DNA of 64,000 nt, from contig CAYMOO010000001.1 in NCBI GenBank assembly GCA_964392185.1, forward strand, positions 24,060 through 88,059, written 5' to 3'. The translations under genes were made by a program, and so were the position numbers. Positions 15,550-46,031 of the stretch are shown here, one piece after another (positions within the stretch are counted from its first letter, which is position 1; each line of letters starts with the position of its first letter). The notes below the pieces were generated by a model. The model made no database searches and was not told where the DNA came from. It worked only from the letters and a program-made list of their open reading frames with translations. The stretch comes from an uncultured Gammaproteobacteria bacterium (lineage in GTDB: Bacteria > Patescibacteriota > Microgenomatia > UBA1406 > GWC2-37-13).

Positions 15550-15623
15550 TGGACCTGAGGGGACTCGAACCCCTGATCTCCTGACTGCCAGCCAGGCATT
15601 CTAGCCAACTGAACTACAGGCCC
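15550..15623 (-). tRNA. tRNA-Ala (anticodon GGC)
   Basis: The minus strand reads GGGCCTGTAGTTCAGTTGGCTAGAATGCCTGGCTGGCAGTCAGGAGATCAGGGGTTCGAGTCCCCTCAGGTCCA. It forms a cloverleaf with a 7-bp acceptor stem carrying the G3:U70 alanine identity pair, anticodon loop CTGGCAG, and T loop TTCGAGT. No CCA is encoded. Confidence 0.9.
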
Positions 15624-20110: not shown

Positions 20111-20184
20111 CGGGACGTAGTTCAGATGGCTAGAATGCACGCTTTGGGAGCGTGAGGTCGGCGGTTCAAGTCCGCCCGTCCCGA
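20111..20184 (+). tRNA. tRNA-Pro (anticodon TGG)
   Basis: Sequence CGGGACGTAGTTCAGATGGCTAGAATGCACGCTTTGGGAGCGTGAGGTCGGCGGTTCAAGTCCGCCCGTCCCGA. Acceptor stem is CGGGACG/CGTCCCG, anticodon stem CACGC/GCGTG with loop TTTGGGA, and T loop TTCAAGT. No CCA is encoded. Confidence 0.9.
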
Positions 20185-37443: not shown

Positions 37444-38304
37444 TTATAGCTGACCGAGCTTTTCTTTTCTCTCGGTTTCTTCACGGACAAGATTGAGAAA
37501 TCTTTCGGTAGATGACAAACGGCGGTGTCCGACTATTCGGGCTATATATTCAAGGGATGCTCCACGCATCAGTTGATGGGCAATAAAAGTGTTTCTAAGG
37601 TCGTTGACGGTTGCATTGGTGATTTCCACCTCGCGGAAACAACGGTCGATAATTTGTCTAATATTTCTTATCAACAACTGCTTTCCGTTTCGCGTAATAA
37701 AAACGTAGGTCTCTTCCGATTGTGGTCGGATAGCTAAATATTCGTCTAGTGCAGTTTTCGCCGCTTTATTAAGAGGTACGTCACGTTCAATGTTCTTACC
37801 ATAAGGACGGATATGTAAATGATCTTCTTTTACGTCTTCCAGGTGTAATTCTGCCAGCTCTCCAATTTTTATACCAGTCTGGAGAAGTAACTCCACCAGA
37901 GCGTATGTGCGGACATCTTCCTTGGCTAAATCACGTAGTGCGCGATATTCAAGAGTGCTTAAAATTCTCGGTGACGATGGCGTAGATTTAGGATGGGAAA
38001 TATCCAGTGTAGGATTGTATTCAATCACGCTTTGCACTTTTAGGGTACGGAAAAATGTACGAATAGAGTTGAGCTTTCGGGAAGCTGATTTCTTTGTATA
38101 GTTCTCTTTTATCAGTTTTTCGATAAAAGCTTCTACGTCTTCTTTCTTTATCTCGCGCACATCGCTTTTTTCAAGCGTAGTAAAAAAACCTATAAACTGT
38201 TCCAGATCTTTTTTATATGCTATAACGGTATGATGCGACTTGTTTTGGCTCTTGAGTTGGCTTATAAACCCCTCAAGAAGCGACGGTAATGAGTACTGAT
38301 CCAT
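37444..38304 (-). CDS. XerC/XerD-like tyrosine-recombinase homologue with substituted catalytic residues (Tyr->Phe)
   Basis: 286-aa ORF with an N-terminal SAM-like core-binding domain (HTVIAYKKDLEQF). The catalytic domain aligns with E. coli XerD. TGIKIGEL has Lys for Arg-I. NDLRNTF has Asn for both His residues of the HxLRH box, with Arg-II kept. IVGHRRLSSTERF keeps His but has Phe at the Tyr nucleophile position (codon TTT). Confidence 0.8.
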   Translation of the reverse strand: MDQYSLPSLLEGFISQLKSQNKSHHTVIAYKKDLEQFIGFFTTLEKSDVREIKKEDVEAFIEKLIKENYTKKSASRKLNSIRTFFRTLKVQSVIEYNPTLDISHPKSTPSSPRILSTLEYRALRDLAKEDVRTYALVELLLQTGIKIGELAELHLEDVKEDHLHIRPYGKNIERDVPLNKAAKTALDEYLAIRPQSEETYVFITRNGKQLLIRNIRQIIDRCFREVEITNATVNDLRNTFIAHQLMRGASLEYIARIVGHRRLSSTERFLNLVREETERKEKLGQL

Positions 38305-38536
38305 AATAACCTATAATATTAGCACACCTGCCTCATACTTTCAAGTGTAAATTACAATTACTAAACATGCTTTCATCTGGCATAAAATGATCTAAAACGA
38401 TGTGTTTTGACCGTATAAAAATAGTAATATAACCTATAGATTGTAAAATAGTATGATTTATAAGATATGATGTTTGCGCTTTACAAAAAATGCTGCAATA
38501 GCTAAAATATTGCTGCATTAAGAATTTTAATTATAT

Positions 38537-38854
38537 ATGGCCGTAATTCATAGTGATCAAAATACATTCAAAAAAGATGTTTTGGAGGCTAAAAAGCCTG
38601 TTTTTGTTGATTTTTACGCTGAGTGGTGCGGACCTTGCAAGATGACATCTCCGATAATAGATGAGCTTTCGGAAGAAATTAAAGAGGTAACATTCGTAAA
38701 AGTAGACGTAGACAGCAATCAAGACCTAGCATCACAATATTCGGTTTTTTCCATTCCTACCTTTATGATATTCAAAGGAGGAAATGCCGTACACCAGTTT
38801 GTCGGCGCCATGGGAAAAGAAAAATTCATCGAAGAAATAAAAAAGGCAGGATAA
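38537..38854 (+). CDS. trxA: Thioredoxin
   Basis: 105-aa ORF with the WCGPC active site and VDVD...IPT(F) context. Confidence 0.9.
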   Translation: MAVIHSDQNTFKKDVLEAKKPVFVDFYAEWCGPCKMTSPIIDELSEEIKEVTFVKVDVDSNQDLASQYSVFSIPTFMIFKGGNAVHQFVGAMGKEKFIEEIKKAG

Positions 38855-39307
38855 TCAATAAAATCTTCCGATCTCGCGATTTAACACTCTTTTCATAAAT
38901 TTTAGTACGCCTTCATGGGTTTTGCTAAATTGGTGCTTTGTTTGCTCCATAATATAAAAGCTCAGAGTTCCTAGCCACCTGACAGATTCGTGCACTGGTT
39001 GCTTCATGGCGGTTGGTATTTTGTTTTGACTCATAGGTAGCTTTACCGTGTGATAATTGGGGAATTTAACAGCCGCATCTGATCTTACTCCGGCTTTTGC
39101 GATATCAGGCGCGATATTGGGAACGTCGGGCTTCTCTTCAACATATTGCTTAACCTGAGAATCTTCTATTTTATGCTCGACGACTTCACTCAGCGAAACC
39201 ATTTCTTGCCGTCGCACCGGCTCGGCCTCCGCCGAGGAGTGACTACTAGCGGAGTAGTTGGCAATTTTTAGCGGTGTGCTGTTTGGTTTTCTGTTGTCGT
39301 CATTCAT
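38855..39307 (-). CDS. Hypothetical protein (second gene of the riboswitch-controlled pair)
   Basis: 150-aa ORF on the same strand, 30 nt downstream of the 445-aa ORF. No motif recognised. Confidence 0.4.
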   Translation of the reverse strand: MNDDNRKPNSTPLKIANYSASSHSSAEAEPVRRQEMVSLSEVVEHKIEDSQVKQYVEEKPDVPNIAPDIAKAGVRSDAAVKFPNYHTVKLPMSQNKIPTAMKQPVHESVRWLGTLSFYIMEQTKHQFSKTHEGVLKFMKRVLNREIGRFY

Positions 39308-39337
39308 TAAGTTATTATATCTAAATCGGACGTTCGA

Positions 39338-40675
39338 TTAATCACAATCTATATTCGTCTTCTCTTTGAACTCATCTTTTGTCAAACCACATGTGGGGCA
39401 TATCTCGATGCCGTATCCTGACGGTATCGGACAGCCGCAACCACCGAATACAAAATCCGGACAATGAAAATGATCCTCAAGACTATTACAACCAGGAACT
39501 CCGCAAATTGAAAATAGTCCCGCTCCCAATAATCTAGTCATCTCATTTTGATACAATCTGCCGAATGATGACCAACTGTTTAACCCGTACTGATAGTCAC
39601 CATTGCTGGAAGATAAAAATCTATCGAGCGACCCAGCACTAACACTATTTCCTCCACATGATCCGGCAAGCTCTAACATCTGTATATTATTTATCTGTGC
39701 AAAATATTTCATGGTTAAAAAATACGCGTCGTCGACTATTTTTTGGGACCATCTCGAGTTGTCAGATATCTTAAGATCTGAAATTACCTTTTCAACAATC
39801 ATTTCTTTATGGTCCATCCCTTCGTATGCATCTCCGAACTTATCCCGTAATGAATCACTGATGGCCGCCACTGTAAAATGTTCATTGAAATGATTGGTGT
39901 AGCCAACCCTATCTCCGAATTCGTCTTTGATGGTATCCAAATAATCATTAACATCTAAGCCTGTTACAGCCGGTTGCCGCAAATACCAAAGTACTTTCGA
40001 GGATTTTATAACCTCTTCATCCGAAAAATCCGCTCTTAATTTTCCCAAACGAGATAATTCGAAAAAATACTCGTCTATGTAATCTGGCGGAGTGTGAGAA
40101 ATACCGAAACGATTCAAAATATCTACGCTTAAATCTTCTGCCGACCAAGTAACTGCTGAAGAATAGACTATATCTTTGGCGATGTCGTAATAGAGATGGT
40201 AAAACTGTGTTGTGTTGTATTCGATTTTATTAAATTCATTATGTGGATCGTCATCATAACCAGCTTTTCCGGGCAAACTCAAAGACAAAATCATTTTTCC
40301 CGGATTGAGCTTAGCCAGTCTGGTGCTCTCCCTGAATGCTTGAAGAGGTAAACCACCACGTTCTCCCAAATCGAACTGTTTCGCCATGGACGATTCCTCT
40401 GACCGATTTTGATTGCTGTAGACGTTGAAATAATCCGGATATTTATTTCCATAATACATCTGAAACACCGGCGAAACGGATTCATCTTTAAGAACTTCGT
40501 GTGTGAGAAAGTTAAGGTTTGCGATCAGCTCATTTCTGGCATCCTCAGCCGAATTTTCAGCAACGGTAGCTAATCTAAGGGATTCCTTTTTCCCGTCAAA
40601 ACCATAACGAACTAAGGCATCTATCATAAGATTCCCTGTACGGGGATATACACAAGGTTCGGTCTTCGGACTCAT
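39338..40675 (-). CDS. Hypothetical 445-aa protein with C-terminal Cys/His-rich metal-binding cluster, directly downstream of a cobalamin riboswitch
   Basis: It has no signal peptide. The C-terminus reads CGVPGCNSLEDHFHCPDFVFGGCGCPIPSGYGIEICPTCG. No family is recognised. The GAGG Shine-Dalgarno lies 9 nt upstream of the ATG, inside the riboswitch expression platform. Confidence 0.55.
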   Translation of the reverse strand: MSPKTEPCVYPRTGNLMIDALVRYGFDGKKESLRLATVAENSAEDARNELIANLNFLTHEVLKDESVSPVFQMYYGNKYPDYFNVYSNQNRSEESSMAKQFDLGERGGLPLQAFRESTRLAKLNPGKMILSLSLPGKAGYDDDPHNEFNKIEYNTTQFYHLYYDIAKDIVYSSAVTWSAEDLSVDILNRFGISHTPPDYIDEYFFELSRLGKLRADFSDEEVIKSSKVLWYLRQPAVTGLDVNDYLDTIKDEFGDRVGYTNHFNEHFTVAAISDSLRDKFGDAYEGMDHKEMIVEKVISDLKISDNSRWSQKIVDDAYFLTMKYFAQINNIQMLELAGSCGGNSVSAGSLDRFLSSSNGDYQYGLNSWSSFGRLYQNEMTRLLGAGLFSICGVPGCNSLEDHFHCPDFVFGGCGCPIPSGYGIEICPTCGLTKDEFKEKTNIDCD

Positions 40676-40679
40676 ACTT

Positions 40680-40815
40680 ATTTGCCTCGAGTTTACGAGA
40701 GACTAATAAGTACACACCGCTGCGTCACAGTTCGGGATTCACACCCGATTCCCATTTGTCACGCCTAAATTTGGCGCGATCAGTCTTCCCGTTCGTCTAA
40801 GAGGCGAACAGTGAC
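40680..40815 (-). promoter_or_regulatory. Cobalamin (B12) riboswitch
   Basis: The minus strand at 40753-40715 reads GGGAAUCGGGUGUGAAUCCCGAACUGUGACGCAGCGGUG. It matches nearly position for position the conserved core of the E. coli btuB leader as I recall it (GGGAAUCCAGUGCGAAUCUGGAGCUGACGCGCAGCGGU). The 3' platform is a two-tier helix in which 40705-40711 pairs with 40676-40682 and 40696-40700 pairs with 40685-40689. This helix sequesters the GAGG Shine-Dalgarno. B12-related genes lie immediately upstream. Confidence 0.7.
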
Positions 40816-40817
40816 TG

Positions 40818-41357
40818 TCAACCTTGGTTACTAATGTTTAATCTACTTAATAACTTCGAACTTACGCTGTCTGCGAACTTTAATCCATAAAATAAACCGA
40901 AAGAAAAAAATAGATCGCCAATTAAATTATTTCTAAAAAAAGGAATTCCCATAACATAAGAGCTTATGAGCCCTTGAGTGTTTTTAGCATAAATAGTGCC
41001 AGTGGACCATACGCCGTAATTTGTTATAAGAAAAAACAATACGGAAGATGTTAGGGAATATCCAACCAGCTTGGACAACGAAGGGTTGGCTTTTAACATT
41101 ATTCCCAACATAATCACGATTAAAAAACTGCCGTAAACGTAGGGAATTGTCGCATGCAAACCAATAATCAAATCGGAAACAATCATCGCAACTAACGGAA
41201 CCAAAAACTTTGCTTTACCGCTAAAATGAGCTCCGCTGAACAAAGCCAGAGCCGCAATCGGAGTAAAATTCGGGGGGTGAGGAATGACACGTGCGACAAT
41301 TGCCCCTATAATAAAAACTCCCATCAATATTGGTGAAAATTTTCTCTTATTAAACAT
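40818..41357 (-). CDS. Small polytopic membrane protein (ECF S-component-like/DUF6580-like), candidate corrinoid uptake component
   Basis: About 179 aa from the ATG at 41357 (MFNKRK). The ORF-track start overlaps the upstream gene. It has 5-6 TM helices and an IPHPPNFTPIAALALFSG motif. The functional suggestion rests on context only (pduO and DUF4430 upstream, B12 riboswitch downstream). Confidence 0.5.
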   Translation of the reverse strand: MFNKRKFSPILMGVFIIGAIVARVIPHPPNFTPIAALALFSGAHFSGKAKFLVPLVAMIVSDLIIGLHATIPYVYGSFLIVIMLGIMLKANPSLSKLVGYSLTSSVLFFLITNYGVWSTGTIYAKNTQGLISSYVMGIPFFRNNLIGDLFFSFGLFYGLKFADSVSSKLLSRLNISNQG

Positions 41358-41365
41358 AAAATTTA

Positions 41366-41782
41366 TTAATAATATTCCAATTTCCATTCGACCACGTCTC
41401 CGTCCTTCAATATATAACTTCCCGCACCAACTTCCGCTTGCTTTCCATTCACGTAAAATGCCCAAAATTCTCTAGACGCATCTTTTGCTTCGCGACCGTT
41501 TATGGCGGTGATAAATGAATTAGCACCTTCACCCTTCTTCGCGATCTTCGATGCTGATGCAAGTAGATCAAGTGCGTTTGTGCCCGGCTTGACTGCCGAT
41601 TCGCCCAGATCGGTTTTTATTTTTTTAGATTCAATAATTCTCTGGGTGACCTTGATCGTGTTTGTTTTTTCTTTTTTTTCTGTCTTTAAAATTGCTTTAT
41701 TATCACCAAGGTCGCTATGGTAGGCAAAATAACCGACACCGATAAGAATTAATAAAGCAATTACGACTAGATTTCGCTTCAT
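41366..41782 (-). CDS. DUF4430 domain protein (transcobalamin-like beta domain), membrane-anchored
   Basis: 138-aa ORF with an N-terminal TM helix. The C-terminal FITAINGREAKDASREFWAFYVNGKQAEVGAGSYILKDGDVVEWKL matches the DUF4430 pattern (W.y.vNG....ga....l.dGD.i.w). Confidence 0.65.
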   Translation of the reverse strand: MKRNLVVIALLILIGVGYFAYHSDLGDNKAILKTEKKEKTNTIKVTQRIIESKKIKTDLGESAVKPGTNALDLLASASKIAKKGEGANSFITAINGREAKDASREFWAFYVNGKQAEVGAGSYILKDGDVVEWKLEYY

Positions 41783-41786
41783 GGAT

Positions 41787-42302
41787 TTAGGTAATGAATT
41801 CTCGGCCTTTATTATACCATCTCGCCAAAGTAAACAAAAAATCCGAAAGCCTATTCATATACTGCACAATGTGCTCTCCATTACCTTTCAGGTCTTTGGC
41901 ATAAACAACAACCACCGATCGCTCGGCACGACGACATACTCCACGCACGATGTGTAACCTGGACGACGCCTCACTCCCACCGGGAAGAATAAATCTGTTG
42001 AGCTTCGGAAGGGCCTTCTCCATTTTGTCTATCTTGGTTTCGAACTCAACCGCTCGTGAATTAAGCACGACAACCGATTGCTTCGACCCGGCTATGACAG
42101 CCATGACAAGATATAGGTCTTTTTGCACTTCCGTGAGAAAAACCTGCATATCACTATCAAGTGGCAGGCTTGCCCAACCCAAGAAGCTCGTCAACTCATC
42201 TATTTGCCCACCCGCCTCTATCCTCGCATCGGCTTTAGAGACCCTTTCTCCGCCAAACAAGGCGGTTGTCCCGTCATCGCCAGTTTTTGTATATATAGGC
42301 AT
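41787..42302 (-). CDS. pduO: ATP:cob(I)alamin adenosyltransferase, PduO type
   Basis: 171-aa ORF with the N-terminal IYTKTGDDGTTALFGGERVSK signature and RRAERS. Confidence 0.85.
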   Translation of the reverse strand: MPIYTKTGDDGTTALFGGERVSKADARIEAGGQIDELTSFLGWASLPLDSDMQVFLTEVQKDLYLVMAVIAGSKQSVVVLNSRAVEFETKIDKMEKALPKLNRFILPGGSEASSRLHIVRGVCRRAERSVVVVYAKDLKGNGEHIVQYMNRLSDFLFTLARWYNKGREFIT

Positions 42303-42352
42303 AGAGGCTAAAAATCGATCGATTTGGTCATAATTATTAACTCGCTAATTTT

Positions 42353-44752
42353 TCAACACGCCGCATAACCACAGGCATAACATTTACTACAACCCTCTTC
42401 ATTGGCCAAAGTTGAGTTACCGCATTCGGGACAAAGATCAAAGTGAGCGGGCATCGCTGCTTGGGCAACGGGTGCCTGAATGCTCTGACTTGCCAATTGG
42501 GCTTGTTTCGGTGCCTGATCTGCTACAACGGCGTGTCCATTACTTTGACCATTTGTCGCCGCACCATTGTTCATTTTTTGCATCTGTTGTTGGCGTGAAA
42601 AATGCATCATGAGAACTTTGGCGATCGCGTCCGGCAAACTGAGAATCCTCGACTTACCAAAACCCATCGCTCTCGCGCCGCCAATACCCTGCATTTGTCT
42701 AACGATCTCAGTAACTCTTTCTTGGGGGGATAAATGCGATGCGAAACGTAAAGCTACAGAAATCACCCTCCCCATACCTTCCGCCATCGCGTTTACATCG
42801 GTTCCGGCCTTACCGACAGTGATGAAAACTTCGTTCGGTTCGCCTTCATCGCTAGTATTTATGGTTATAAAGGCTGTGCCAACCGGTGTGCCAATCTTAT
42901 AAGTCGAGCCATGGACGACCATCGGTCTGGGCTTGACCATGTATTTCGGCTCTTCTTTTTTCTTCTCTTCTTTCTTGTCTTCTATCTTTGACAAAACACC
43001 CTCCCGTGAGCCATCACGCATATAAGTGACGCCTTTTAATCCTAATTTATAAGCTAAATTATATAGACGCTTCACATCTTCGACCGTATGGTTATTGGGT
43101 GCATTACACGTTTTGGATATAGATGCATCAACATATTTCTGAATAGCTCCCTGAACGCGCACATGATCTTCCGGGGTCAGATCGTTTGCGCTTACGAACC
43201 ATTCCGGCTTCTTAAGCATTCCCGCTCTCACTTCCGCCTCGTGTTTCTTGTACCATTCTTCAAAAAGATGGTGTCTTATAATGTGCTCACCGATACGGTC
43301 GCGACGAATAAACTCAAACTCATAAACCGGCTCTATGCCTGAAGTGGTACCGGACATAAGCGAGGTGGAACCCGTCGGAGCCTGCATAAGTAACAAAGAA
43401 TTCCTGATACCTTGCTTTTTAATGCCGTCTTTTATGTCTTCCGGTAGCTGAGAAATAAACTGACCTTCCACGAATTTCTTTGCTTCGAATTTCCCGAAAG
43501 ACCCTTTTTCAGCACCGACTTCAACCGATGCTCTGTAAGCTTCGTCTCTTATTGTGCTATAAACTTTTTCGATAAATTGCAAAGACTCTTCCGAACCGTA
43601 ACGCATGTGGAGTTTTATAAGCGCGTCACCTATTCCCATCGTGCCTAGACCTATTCTTCTCTCCCCTTCCAACTGCGTCTTGCGGATGCCATCAAAAATA
43701 TAAGGATCCATGTCGATGACATTATCTTGGAAACGGACAGCGGTGCGGACAATTTTTCTCAACGTTTTGAAATCGAAGTGACCTTTTTTGTCAATACTCG
43801 ATGAGACAACCAAAGCTGAAAGATTTATCGAGCCAAGGTTGCAAACTCCCCAGGAAGGTAGCGGCTCTTCGCCACAGGGGTTGGTAGCGTTTATCTTATT
43901 CCAATAGTAATTATTGTAAAGCTTGTTACAACGCTCCATAAATACAACTCCTGGTTCGGCCGACTTCCAGGCGGCTTCGGCAATCATATCCCATATCTTT
44001 CTTGCTTTGACGATTTTGTGAACATTAATTTTCTTGCCCAACTTTTTCCATGTATTAATGTCACCATCCCATTTTTCATCGTATTCAGGATCATGAGTGT
44101 CAGGAAAAACCAGCGGCCAATCAGCGTCTTCTTCGACAGCTTTCATAAATGTATCAGATACACAAACGGAGAGATTGGCACCTAGAATACGACGCAAATC
44201 TTGTTTGACGGTTATAAATTCTTCAAGATCCGGATGCCAGTCCCATATCATGAGCATAAGCGCGCCACGTCTTGTACCGCCTTGCTGAATAATATCGCGT
44301 GTGGCAACGGAAAAGAGCTCCGCCCAGTTCATCGGGCCAGAAGAATAACCATTGACTTTTTCGACCCGCATACCTCTTGGCCTTAAAGAAGAAAGATTGA
44401 AGCCGACACCGCCACCATGGGCCATAATTTCAACCATTTGCTTTAATGTGTCGAGAATCCCACCGCGAGAATCCTTGGGTGATGGAATAACAAAACAGTT
44501 ATAGTAGGTAACCTTATATCCGGTACCGGCACCGGCTAGAATTCTTCCTCCCGGAACATACTTAAAATCTTTCATGGCAAAATAAAATTCTTTTTCCCAT
44601 TTTTTTCTTTCTTTTGGCTTTTCCAGCTCAGCGACCGCTTTGGCGACACGTTTCCACATTTCATCTGGTGTTTTTTCTTGTGGTTCACCTTTCTTGTTTT
44701 TTAACGAATAGCGATCGAGAAAGACTTTTTGCGAGATACCCGTGAGTTTCAT
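42353..44752 (-). CDS. nrdJ: Adenosylcobalamin-dependent (class II) ribonucleotide reductase
   Basis: 799-aa ORF with the active-site region NPCGEEPLPSWGVCNLGSINL. It has a Gln/Ala-rich insertion and a C-terminal zinc ribbon CPECGNSTLANEEGCSKCYACGY. Confidence 0.9.
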   Translation of the reverse strand: MKLTGISQKVFLDRYSLKNKKGEPQEKTPDEMWKRVAKAVAELEKPKERKKWEKEFYFAMKDFKYVPGGRILAGAGTGYKVTYYNCFVIPSPKDSRGGILDTLKQMVEIMAHGGGVGFNLSSLRPRGMRVEKVNGYSSGPMNWAELFSVATRDIIQQGGTRRGALMLMIWDWHPDLEEFITVKQDLRRILGANLSVCVSDTFMKAVEEDADWPLVFPDTHDPEYDEKWDGDINTWKKLGKKINVHKIVKARKIWDMIAEAAWKSAEPGVVFMERCNKLYNNYYWNKINATNPCGEEPLPSWGVCNLGSINLSALVVSSSIDKKGHFDFKTLRKIVRTAVRFQDNVIDMDPYIFDGIRKTQLEGERRIGLGTMGIGDALIKLHMRYGSEESLQFIEKVYSTIRDEAYRASVEVGAEKGSFGKFEAKKFVEGQFISQLPEDIKDGIKKQGIRNSLLLMQAPTGSTSLMSGTTSGIEPVYEFEFIRRDRIGEHIIRHHLFEEWYKKHEAEVRAGMLKKPEWFVSANDLTPEDHVRVQGAIQKYVDASISKTCNAPNNHTVEDVKRLYNLAYKLGLKGVTYMRDGSREGVLSKIEDKKEEKKKEEPKYMVKPRPMVVHGSTYKIGTPVGTAFITINTSDEGEPNEVFITVGKAGTDVNAMAEGMGRVISVALRFASHLSPQERVTEIVRQMQGIGGARAMGFGKSRILSLPDAIAKVLMMHFSRQQQMQKMNNGAATNGQSNGHAVVADQAPKQAQLASQSIQAPVAQAAMPAHFDLCPECGNSTLANEEGCSKCYACGYAAC

Positions 44753-44765
44753 AAAAATTGAAAAT

Positions 44766-45212
44766 TTATAATATTTTTTTTAATTCCTTTTGGAATTCTT
44801 CCACATCGAGAAATCTTCTAAACACCGAAGCGAATCTAATATATGCAACTTTGTCTATGGATTTGAGGTTGGTCGCTACCATGTCCCCTATCGCCTGACT
44901 ATCAACCTCGGCTTCTTCTCTCTGCGTTATCTCGGTTTCTATTGCGTCAATAATTCTTTCTACCTGTTCTGCCGAAACGGTTGTTTTTTCAACCGAACGA
45001 ATCACGCCGGCTCTTATTTTGTCACGGTTGAAGCGTTCGCGTCTGCCGTCACGTTTTATCACCAAGATCGGCAACTCCTCTATTCGTTCGTACGTAGTGA
45101 ATCTTTTTTTGCAAGACGCACAGGTGCGTCTTCTTCTGATTGTGCGTCCGTCTTCCGACGCTCTCGTTTCGATTACCTCGGTTTCGATGTTTTTACAAAA
45201 TAAACAGTGCAT
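44766..45212 (-). CDS. nrdR: Transcriptional repressor NrdR
   Basis: 148-aa ORF with the zinc ribbon MHCLFCKN...CASCKKRFTTYE, followed by an ATP-cone (VIKRDGRRERFNRDKI). Confidence 0.9.
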   Translation of the reverse strand: MHCLFCKNIETEVIETRASEDGRTIRRRRTCASCKKRFTTYERIEELPILVIKRDGRRERFNRDKIRAGVIRSVEKTTVSAEQVERIIDAIETEITQREEAEVDSQAIGDMVATNLKSIDKVAYIRFASVFRRFLDVEEFQKELKKIL

Positions 45213-45240
45213 CTTGAAAAAAATTCAGACCTATTCCAAC

Positions 45241-45288
45241 ATAATTTATATAGTGTCACATACAAGACTAAAACACTAATGGTATGAA
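45241..45288. promoter_or_regulatory. Two candidate NrdR boxes upstream of nrdR-nrdJ
   Basis: ATAATTTATATAGTGT (45241-45256) has a right half that perfectly matches the acaCwAtATaTwGtgt consensus. ACACTAATGGTATGAA (45273-45288) has a matching left half. The start-to-start spacing is 32 bp, as expected for tandem NrdR boxes. Both boxes are degenerate. Confidence 0.35.
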
Positions 45289-45395
45289 TGCAAGATATCA
45301 AAATCTCTTTTAAATACATCAGTTTTTCTACACATTTTTTAAACATTAAATATTTTTACTTATCCGACAATCTAAAGTTGATATAATATAAACCT

Positions 45396-46031
45396 ATGAA
45401 CAAAAAACAGCTAAACAACAGTCTAAAACGAATTCTATATCTGATACAACAAGCTGGGACACTTATGTTATTTCCTCGAACCCATATACGCTCGCTCGGC
45501 AACACATTTGACACAGTCGCTTCACATAGTCACCATGTGGCGGTGATTTGCTACTGTATTTGCCGCATGGAGGGGTTGAGTCACGAAGAAGCAATCAACG
45601 GGGTAGCAATGGCGGTATTTCACGATTTGGCGGAAGCCCGTACGGGCGATTTGGATTTTGTCGCCAAACATTACGGTAAAGTTGACGAGAAAAAAGCAAT
45701 CGATGATCAGTTCTCCGGCACGCCTTTCGTAGAAGATCTCACAAAAATGATGGATGAGTATAATGCGCGAGAGTCGTGGGTGTCCAAATGCACAAAAGAC
45801 GCCGATAGTTTGGCACAGATGTTTGCCGAATGGGTTCTTATGTGGCAGGGAAACAAACTCGCTGGAAAATGGTTTGAGTCGGACTACAAAGACAGATTGC
45901 CCGCCTTCAAAACAGAATCAGCGAGGCGGTTGGCTCTCGCTATGAAGGATAGTAATCCGCATGAATGGTGGTGGAGCCAGTTTATGCAAAATGATGTCGC
46001 GATTGATAAAGAAAAATTGACGGGAAAATAA
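45396..46031 (+). CDS. HD-domain phosphohydrolase (YfbR-like 5'-nucleotidase family)
   Basis: 211-aa ORF with VASHSHHVAVICY (H) and FHDLAEARTGDL (HD...D) metal-binding motifs. Confidence 0.75.
   Translation: MNKKQLNNSLKRILYLIQQAGTLMLFPRTHIRSLGNTFDTVASHSHHVAVICYCICRMEGLSHEEAINGVAMAVFHDLAEARTGDLDFVAKHYGKVDEKKAIDDQFSGTPFVEDLTKMMDEYNARESWVSKCTKDADSLAQMFAEWVLMWQGNKLAGKWFESDYKDRLPAFKTESARRLALAMKDSNPHEWWWSQFMQNDVAIDKEKLTGK

Follow-up and report, generated by a model that had tools for sequence, protein, structure and literature searches.

A 64,000-nucleotide (nt) stretch of contig CAYMOO010000001.1 (assembly GCA_964392185.1, positions 24,060 to 88,059; hereafter the window) carries on its minus strand a string of genes that use or supply vitamin B12, followed by a Cobalamin riboswitch of Rfam family RF00174 and by an uncharacterized gene, here called FAM. 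Our analysis pointed to a standard switch of the RF00174 type that would respond to abundant coenzyme B12 by turning off translation of the single gene behind it, a reading to which we assign a probability of about 85%.

The riboswitch and its expression platform

When the whole window was scanned with Rfam 15 at curated thresholds, RF00174 matched positions 40799 to 40640 of the minus strand with 42.9 bits (E 1.8e-7; gathering score, 31.5 bits), and the alignment spanned model positions 1 to 189 of 189, which makes it a full-length match. The E value was 2.2e-8 when only the 8-kb region from 38000 to 46000 was scanned at a permissive setting, and no second riboswitch was detected in the gene string by that scan; in the 64-kb window, the RF00174 element was the sole riboswitch match. 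No member of clan CL00101 scored above RF00174, one lower-scoring overlapping match of the clan having been dropped in competition. These data confirmed that the element is a genuine Cobalamin riboswitch, far above chance. An earlier note on this DNA had called such a switch and proposed a covariance-model search as its check; the significant match bore out the call, as did RF00174 matches upstream of the relatives' genes. The strings and positions given in that note proved exact on the minus strand (the core GGGAAUCGGGUGUGAAUCCCGAACUGUGACGCAGCGGUG, 40753-40715; ACUUAUU, 40711-40705, pairing with AAUAAGU, 40682-40676; UCUCG, 40700-40696, pairing with CGAGG, 40689-40685; ATG at 40675). Its suggestion of a compact or variant class was not sustained, since RF00174 is the best clan member and aligns over its full length, and the P6 extension of relatives merely varies from ~10 to ~100 nt. 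Judged by its score, its B12 box, the covariation of P1 and its kissing-loop/P13 module, the RNA element is a further member of an already known class.

The minimum free energy (MFE) fold of positions 40835 to 40615 was used for helix assignment (Table 1). P1, which closes the aptamer domain, comprises 9 base pairs (bp) in this fold, and its 5′ strand overlaps the TGA stop codon (40820-40818) of the upstream DUF6580 gene. Among 63 related loci there were 51 distinct P1 3′ strands with complementary partners, and the pairing averaged 8.5 bp in relatives versus 6.7 bp in shuffles; in the window, P1 is misplaced by the Rfam alignment itself, which marks noncanonical pairs there. The second of the 5′ peripheral hairpins (40779-40759) was also placed by the Rfam alignment, and the related locus L001 folds into the same layout as the window, including these peripheral helices. 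We also considered a CCCC tract pairing with the 5′-terminal GGGA of the aptamer, which would yield an extended P1 and an ON logic. This pairing was ruled out because L001 and other relatives show a clean P1 directly after the B12 box, with the CCCC uninvolved.

A 14-bp helix (40713-40699 paired with 40688-40674 in the MFE fold) lies between the conserved core and the B12 box, and it is this helix that the earlier note had described as two-tiered and taken for the expression platform. Aligned to RF00174, this helix occupies the variable insertion of the model (positions ~93 to ~144), where relatives have hairpins of differing length. The alignment continues 3′ beyond ATG 40675; the B12 box, near-invariant in 54 relatives, comes directly after that ATG and lies 3′ of the P6 region, as RF00174 requires. 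Because the helix sits in a variable insertion, with the B12 box and the 3′ strand of P1 still to come, we assigned it to the aptamer as an internal P6 extension and rejected it as the platform.

For 54 nonredundant riboswitches, all sequence from L5 up to the start codon was aligned as one piece (7 loci were not bound by the DNA pattern described below), and P5, P13, and the L5-L13 pseudoknot were scored against 500 shuffles. The three inner pairs of P13 form in all 54 sequences, and compensatory changes occur at each of its four pairs (CCC/GGG; CUCC/GGAG in L120; UGUC/GAUA in L126; ACA/UGU in L128). L5 and L13 are complementary over five pairs with one L13 nucleotide bulged (269 of 270 cells), and none of the 500 shuffles attained the pairing values observed for P13 and L5-L13. 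L5 reads UGCCG in 53 of the 54 sequences and L13 reads CG-N-GCA, both invariant in every aligned sequence but that of the window, which alone has L5 UGACG and L13 CGUACA. With the bulge shifted by one nucleotide (A40725 paired with U40640 and A40639 bulged), the window again has five L5-L13 pairs. This paired change at two otherwise invariant positions resembles co-adaptation; as a single case, it could also reflect a weaker switch. In cobalamin riboswitches, it is established that ligand binding stabilizes the L5-L13 kissing loop, that this loop in turn stabilizes P13, and that P13 hides the initiation region; UCCCG is the consensus of their L5, and env8 provides a case of a bulged L13 in the kissing loop (PMC10327014). 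By these sequence comparisons, P13 appears to be the real expression platform and, together with L5, a classical kissing-loop module.

P13 ends 5 nt ahead of AUG 40627 in the window, and the spacing is 3 to 10 nt in ~50 related loci; L126 and L128 leave no gap, the AUG there adjoining the 3′ arm of P13 or overlapping with it. In the window, the interval from P13 to the AUG contains neither a terminator-like hairpin nor a U-run. Because a terminator is absent and the hairpin ends so close to the AUG, control in the window is most likely translational, and on this point the earlier note was probably right. L120 has the same P13/L13 module with an intrinsic terminator behind it, and the 5′ arm of that terminator can pair with the P13 3′ arm. 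For the P. megaterium metE switch, experiments have demonstrated repression by this arrangement (PMC10327014). Since the L120 terminator variant has this repressing topology, the family would be one of OFF switches.

The start codon was placed by comparison with homologues. The longest open reading frame (ORF) opens at 40675 and encodes 445 amino acids (aa), and a second in-frame ATG at 40627 gives 429 aa. The N termini of two close and ~100 remote homologues align with the second Met, and an AUG after the P13 hairpin recurs in ~50 related loci. These data replaced ATG 40675, the start adopted by the earlier note, with AUG 40627; the public protein record of the gene is likewise the 445-aa version. 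A similar case was found in L121 (82-264), in which the called start reaches ~180 nt into the aptamer and yields 426 aa instead of ~365 aa. Start calling inside the aptamer is thus a recurring annotation error, affecting the window and at least one relative. The 142-nt gap in which the earlier note had placed the element arose because the longest ORF was called as the gene; the element itself is real, but the borders were too narrow, as its functional extent is ~40828-40625 rather than 40817-40676.

Of 50 genes in the window, 6 have a Shine-Dalgarno (SD)-like 4-mer at −18 to −7 (background, 11%), and 22 have a TATAAT-like box starting at −20 to −11 (background, 8%); gene starts with such a box include 33892, 36279, 39307, 45396, and 49948. 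These frequencies suggest that the organism largely uses leaderless mRNAs and that its genome is essentially SD-less. With SD-like 4-mers at the background level, the GAGG that the earlier note had read as a buried SD sequence becomes moot. Sequestration of an SD sequence as the primary mechanism was set aside in view of the missing SD enrichment and of L126 and L128, which lack the GGGA. Since the genome shows no SD enrichment, we prefer steric occlusion of the initiation region as the probable mode of action.

Gene neighborhood and related loci

Table 1 Features of the riboswitch and of the surrounding genes in the window
Feature	Position	Strand	Basis
Cobalamin riboswitch aptamer domain, P1 5′ strand to P1 3′ strand	40650..40828	-	RF00174 match, MFE fold, P1 conservation
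P1 5′ strand ACCAAGGUU	40820..40828	-	MFE fold
5′ peripheral helices: CAGUC/GACUG around hairpin 40811-40789, then UCGCGCC/GGCGUGA hairpin 40779-40759	40759..40817	-	MFE fold
Conserved aptamer core GGGAAUCGGGUGUGAAUCCCGAACUGUGACGCAGCGGUG (P3 5′ strand, P4/L4, P5/L5, P6 start)	40715..40753	-	String match, RF00174 alignment
L5 loop UGACG, kissing partner of L13	40723..40727	-	Aligned relatives; L5 consensus from PMC10327014
P6-extension hairpin (the two-tier helix of the earlier note)	40674..40713	-	Variable insertion of RF00174 alignment, MFE fold
Spurious in-frame ATG (445-aa version)	40673..40675	-	Longest-ORF calling, public annotation
B12 box AGUCCGAAGACC	40661..40672	-	Aligned to RF00174 consensus AGCCAGGAGACC
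P1 3′ strand AACCUUGUGU	40650..40659	-	MFE fold
P13 hairpin UCCC-CGUACA-GGGA, loop L13 at 40642-40637	40633..40646	-	Conserved stem, loop complementary to L5
True start codon AUG, 5 nt after P13	40625..40627	-	Homologue N termini, position in related loci
FAM, controlled gene, 429 aa	39338..40627	-	ORF, homologues
ORF150, conserved FAM neighbor	38855..39307	-	Synteny, own −10-like box UAUAAU 39319-39314
Thioredoxin, convergent with ORF150, part of conserved synteny	38537..38854	+	Domain match
DUF6580 membrane protein gene, start ATG 41357, directly upstream of riboswitch	40818..41357	-	Domain match
DUF4430 protein	41366..41782	-	Domain match; PMC4350170
PduO-type ATP:cob(I)alamin adenosyltransferase	41787..42302	-	Domain match
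Class II (adenosylcobalamin-dependent) ribonucleotide reductase NrdJ	42353..44752	-	Domain match
NrdR repressor	44766..45212	-	Domain match

As the earlier note had it, the riboswitch stands after the B12-utilization genes and ahead of an uncharacterized gene (Table 1). DUF4430 is a domain found at the C terminus of transcobalamins (PMC4350170). NrdJ needs adenosylcobalamin (AdoCbl) and PduO makes it; repression of either gene in the presence of B12 would be senseless, which explains why neither lies behind the switch. The switch is placed to repress only the downstream gene, whereas the upstream string uses or supplies B12. The earlier note had counted two genes downstream; FAM does lie behind the switch, but inclusion of ORF150 is doubtful, as it has its own TATAAT box 6 to 9 nt before its ATG. 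Most of 30 ORF150 homologues from other loci also have a −10 box of their own. In ~30 related loci, ORF150 always lies 8 to 84 nt after FAM, convergent with thioredoxin; its motifs are NYTPID, KEGEP, LPPDLKKxG, and SSxRWLAExAxYxLKxAHL, and database searches with ORF150 gave no match. ORF150 is probably a separate leaderless transcript, and because it carries its own UAUAAU, the switch most likely controls one gene and not two. The only other Rfam matches in the window at curated thresholds were two tRNA genes, at 15550-15623 (minus strand) and 20111-20184 (plus strand), with 64 bits each. A sub-threshold match to CRISPR-DR25 at 44777-44801 on the plus strand (30.9 bits; gathering score, 36), in single copy inside nrdR, is almost certainly due to chance.

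Two close homologues of FAM (46 to 48% identity) were found in the same synteny, nrdR-nrdJ-pduO-DUF4430-DUF6580-gap-gene-ORF150-trx, and RF00174 matched in the gap of syntenic relatives with 52.2, 44.6, and 41.9 bits. A DNA pattern combining the B12 box and P13, GTCCGAAGACC N8-30 CCCCGNNCAGGG, was then run on genome and metagenome collections and returned 116 loci. About 70 of these are genuine riboswitches on low-GC contigs, and ~45 were discarded as chance matches in high-GC genomes lacking the aptamer core. The contigs with genuine switches are named Roizmanbacteria, Gottesmanbacteria, Microgenomates, Patescibacteria, or “uncultured Gammaproteobacteria” with the same synteny, and FAM homologues sit in Patescibacteria wherever the organism is named. 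At 52 of the loci derived from the pattern, the downstream ORF matched a hidden Markov model (HMM) of FAM. This set is biased because it was found via the riboswitch; hence, an unbiased test was made on seven diverse members known from protein searches only. Each of them has an RF00174 match immediately upstream, five with 47.9, 39, 37.8, 37.7, and 51.7 bits and two below the gathering score with 27.4 and 25.2 bits (E < 0.01). Thus, the riboswitch is the sole constant partner of FAM, in every locus examined and whatever the neighbors.

The commonest context of FAM is the nrdJ cassette, whose synteny recurs in dozens of loci. Elsewhere, FAM lies between ftsW with the switch and murG, beside a unit of S-adenosylmethionine (SAM) riboswitch and metK, or isolated among unrelated neighbors. 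Riboswitch and FAM are found inside mraY-murD-ftsW-[switch]-FAM-murG-ftsQ-ftsA in L126 (3001-4131), L127, and L129/L130 (3001-4080), and L129 additionally encodes a MurL-type epimerase. In two lineages, the next gene downstream lies −19 to +14 nt from FAM and encodes a nitroreductase-family protein (L016, 2942-3574) or a SET-domain protein (L076, 2747-3310); these genes may be cotranscribed with FAM behind the switch. L120 (1714-1985 and 3150-3262) carries the transcriptional variant of the switch, with P13 CUCC/GGAG and the terminator, and downstream of FAM a sub-threshold SAM riboswitch match (38.9 bits; gathering score, 44.4) ahead of metK, which is followed by genes for a deoxynucleoside kinase and a HAD hydrolase. 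No coherent functional hint emerged from the non-nrd neighbors, which comprise nitroreductase, SET, ferric-reductase-like, cupredoxin, NicO-like, and dcw genes. A literature search retrieved no paper joining a cobalamin riboswitch with Patescibacteria or cobalamin with Roizmanbacteria, and none naming DUF6580.

Sequence divergence is uneven along the cassette. Compared with L001, the window shows 81% identity for NrdJ and 46% for FAM; compared with L058, it shows 82% for NrdJ, whereas the FAM of L058 gives only a weak HMM match of 22 bits. FAM evolves much faster than its neighbors. Many contigs labeled “uncultured Gammaproteobacteria bacterium,” from TPA-assembled metagenome-assembled genomes, carry the Patescibacteria-type cassette nrdR-nrdJ-pduO-switch-FAM-ORF150-trx-xerC-RNase H (L008, L011, L012, L019-L021, L025, L028, L034, L036, L040, L045, L054, L058, L059, L063, and L065); identity to the NrdJ of the window reaches 82% among them, and the taxonomic label looks wrong.

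The FAM protein

FAM matched no family in Pfam, NCBIfam, PADLOC, or PHROGs and no PDB sequence. When 42 members were compared with Pfam, none matched save for weak zinc-ribbon matches, and a profile search of PDB likewise matched the C-terminal zinc ribbon only, and weakly. An indexed search of 5.8 billion proteins returned three FAM sequences, an indexed search with the deep alignment listed at least 4 proteins, and when 1.84 billion cluster representatives were searched exhaustively with a profile, 101 were returned, mostly of 350 to 430 aa; a peptide-pattern scan of species-representative genomes and of metagenome contigs from the Joint Genome Institute (JGI) found no relatives. The conserved motifs are PVS, RERGG, SPxGPA, GQLY, GSCGG, SSxxR, and a C-terminal four-Cys ribbon, which has in common with the C-terminal ribbon of NrdJ only a generic CPxCG. 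By inspection, no signal peptide, lipobox, or membrane segment was detected in FAM.

AlphaFold2 models were obtained for the window protein (predicted local distance difference test [pLDDT], 88.0; predicted template modeling score [pTM], 0.77) and for a compact member, P0038 (pLDDT, 88.8; pTM, 0.81). When PDB and BFVD were searched with both models in Foldseek, no E value fell below 0.01, the best matches having E values of 0.03 to 0.07 and TM scores below 0.2. As modeled, the fold of FAM is confidently predicted and without a detectable structural relative. The nominal best match of the compact-member model was BT_1490/BtuG1 (3hlz), a B12-binding surface protein of a riboswitch-controlled Bacteroides locus (PMC8941943). 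This match was absent from the list of the window model; with an E value of 0.07, a probability of 0.06, a TM score of 0.1, and a root mean square deviation of 19 Å, it was rejected as noise. FAM was also considered as a class I or III ribonucleotide reductase (RNR) and rejected, since it has no Pfam RNR domain and the Foldseek matches include neither RNR nor pyruvate formate-lyase (PFL); its predicted secondary structure has too few strands for the ten-stranded alpha/beta barrel of RNR/PFL.

By the logic of the switch, FAM would be a protein induced by B12 starvation. Regulatory logic and gene neighborhood lead us to propose, as a best guess, that FAM helps to acquire or process scarce corrinoid and, as a second guess drawn from the same two sources, that it spares or bypasses the AdoCbl need of NrdJ. 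A bolder reading, which we regard as doubtful though conceivable, is that FAM, possibly with ORF150 and thioredoxin, is a structurally novel protein that lets NrdJ-dependent Patescibacteria cope without AdoCbl. In its exotic version this would be a B12-sparing or bypass route to deoxyribonucleotides, itself a speculative idea of low probability, and in another a new intracellular factor for corrinoid capture or processing.

Proposed mechanism, rival explanations, and known systems

The following model builds on the results described above, namely the identity of the aptamer, P1, the covariation of P13, the complementarity of L5 and L13, the position of the start codon, and the association with the gene. 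The aptamer (40828-40650) would bind B12, presumably as AdoCbl, whereupon L5 (40727-40723) would kiss L13 (40642-40637). The kissing loop would lock P13 (40646-40633) directly ahead of the start codon at 40627, and the locked hairpin would keep the 30S subunit from loading, leaving FAM untranslated. Without B12, the weak 4-bp P13 would open and FAM would be translated.

Several observations weigh against this model. Ribosomes would have to start on an internal AUG preceded by 200 nt of leader, in a near-SD-less genome. The kissing-loop pairs are invariant among relatives, so their complementarity is conserved rather than proven by covariation, and the window, as the sole exception, has an A.A mismatch in the common L5-L13 register, which could weaken its kissing loop. 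In the window, a scan for sigma-70 promoters gave none directly ahead of P1, where the only promoter-like box seen by eye is a weak TAGATT at 40845-40840. If the switch were transcribed by read-through, P1 would be disturbed by ribosomes reaching the stop codon at 40820-40818. L001 has a near-consensus promoter, TTGACA-19-TATAAT, overlapping the stop codon of the DUF6580 gene; because of it, a promoter of its own is plausible for the riboswitch transcript, with read-through from the upstream operon as an alternative.

Four other explanations were weighed against the model. The two-tier helix exists and is stable, and ATG 40675 opens the longest ORF and has been adopted in the public protein record. 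It is nonetheless extremely improbable that ACUUAUU/AAUAAGU and UCUCG/CGAGG form the platform and hide a GAGG SD sequence and the ATG of a 445-aa protein: two integral parts of the aptamer, the B12 box and the 3′ strand of P1, lie 3′ of that ATG; in the alignment, the helix corresponds to the variable P6 extension; the second Met is where homologues begin, and the position of the post-P13 AUG is conserved in ~50 loci; and SD motifs are unused in the genome. Translational riboswitches often show secondary Rho effects, which was counted in favor of a switch acting mainly on transcription or mRNA stability, through Rho-dependent termination or RNase access after the translation block, as was the intrinsic terminator that L120 employs with the same aptamer and P13. 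We consider such a switch unlikely here, where nothing resembling a terminator hairpin or U-run separates P13 from the AUG, which lies only 5 nt farther on; in L126 and L128, P13 overlaps the AUG.

The copy in the window might instead be weakened or decaying, since both kissing partners are changed (UGCCG to UGACG and CGNGCA to CGUACA), in which case FAM may be constitutive. The window is alone among the 54 sequences in having a nonpair in the common register, and its Rfam score was counted as the lowest among its three close relatives; yet the core, the B12 box, P1, and P13 are all intact, the 1-nt bulge shift (A40725-U40640) gives five pairs in a bulged kissing loop of the kind known from env8 (PMC10327014), and a joint change of two otherwise invariant positions looks like co-adaptation rather than decay. 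Decay is therefore quite unlikely. An activating corrinoid riboswitch with the same L5-L13/P13 module has been described, which lends some support to an ON switch that activates FAM translation upon B12 binding; in that switch, however, P13 competes with a terminator (PMC10327014), whereas here a stabilized P13 can only cover the initiation region. As the L120 terminator variant also has the repressing topology, activation is very improbable, and we retain the model of a translational OFF switch.

Because Rfam finds the switch at the curated threshold, the riboswitch adds nothing new to riboswitch biology, and the novelty lies in the regulated protein family. The analysis corrects a gene-start annotation error, public records included, and the switch flags a family of ~100 sequence clusters with a confident fold and no detectable structural relative. 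Ultra-small Patescibacteria cannot make B12, and at the loci examined here, as distinct from whole genomes, RNR is the only recognizable B12-dependent enzyme. What is switched on when B12 runs out would bear directly on the dependence of these organisms on hosts or communities, and the riboswitch offers a concrete handle on that question.

The situation of FAM recalls that of BtuG and BtuH of Bacteroides, lineage-specific proteins of once unknown function that were found through their linkage to a cobalamin riboswitch and transport genes (PMC8941943). BtuG and BtuH are surface lipoproteins, whereas FAM lacks a signal peptide and lipobox by inspection and has a zinc ribbon, and its compact-member model gave no significant match to BT_1490 (E 0.07; TM, 0.1). 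Cobalamin riboswitches also control B12-independent isozymes, such as metE and, where nrdJ is also present, class I or III RNR genes. The likeness to this scheme is that a gene beside a B12-dependent enzyme (NrdJ) would be repressed when B12 is available; in contrast, FAM shows no similarity to RNR or MetE in sequence or predicted fold, and some lineages have it in the dcw cluster or alone.

Among experimentally studied switches, the transcriptional OFF switch of P. megaterium metE (PMC10327014) is matched by L120, in which the P13 3′ arm can pair with the terminator 5′ arm. The copy in the window differs from it in having no terminator and in acting, as we propose, beside the AUG. Switches of the env8 type are not known to carry a P6 extension and prefer hydroxo- or methylcobalamin. 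The window element, by comparison, has a P6 extension, and RF00174 outscores the other clan members; it resembles env8HyCbl (class II, translational) in its bulged L13 kissing loop and in a P13 that would directly control ribosome access (PMC10327014). From RF00174 and the E. coli btuB leader, it departs in L5, which is UGACG (UGCCG in relatives) rather than the consensus UCCCG, and in a kissing loop that needs a bulged L13 nucleotide. Its P6 extension is a single short hairpin, its host is essentially SD-less, and its target is not a known B12 gene. With the translational btuB leader it shares, on the other hand, the conserved core, the B12 box, the closing P1, and the putative OFF logic (PMC10327014), together with a P13 whose loop pairs with L5 and which would hide the initiation region.

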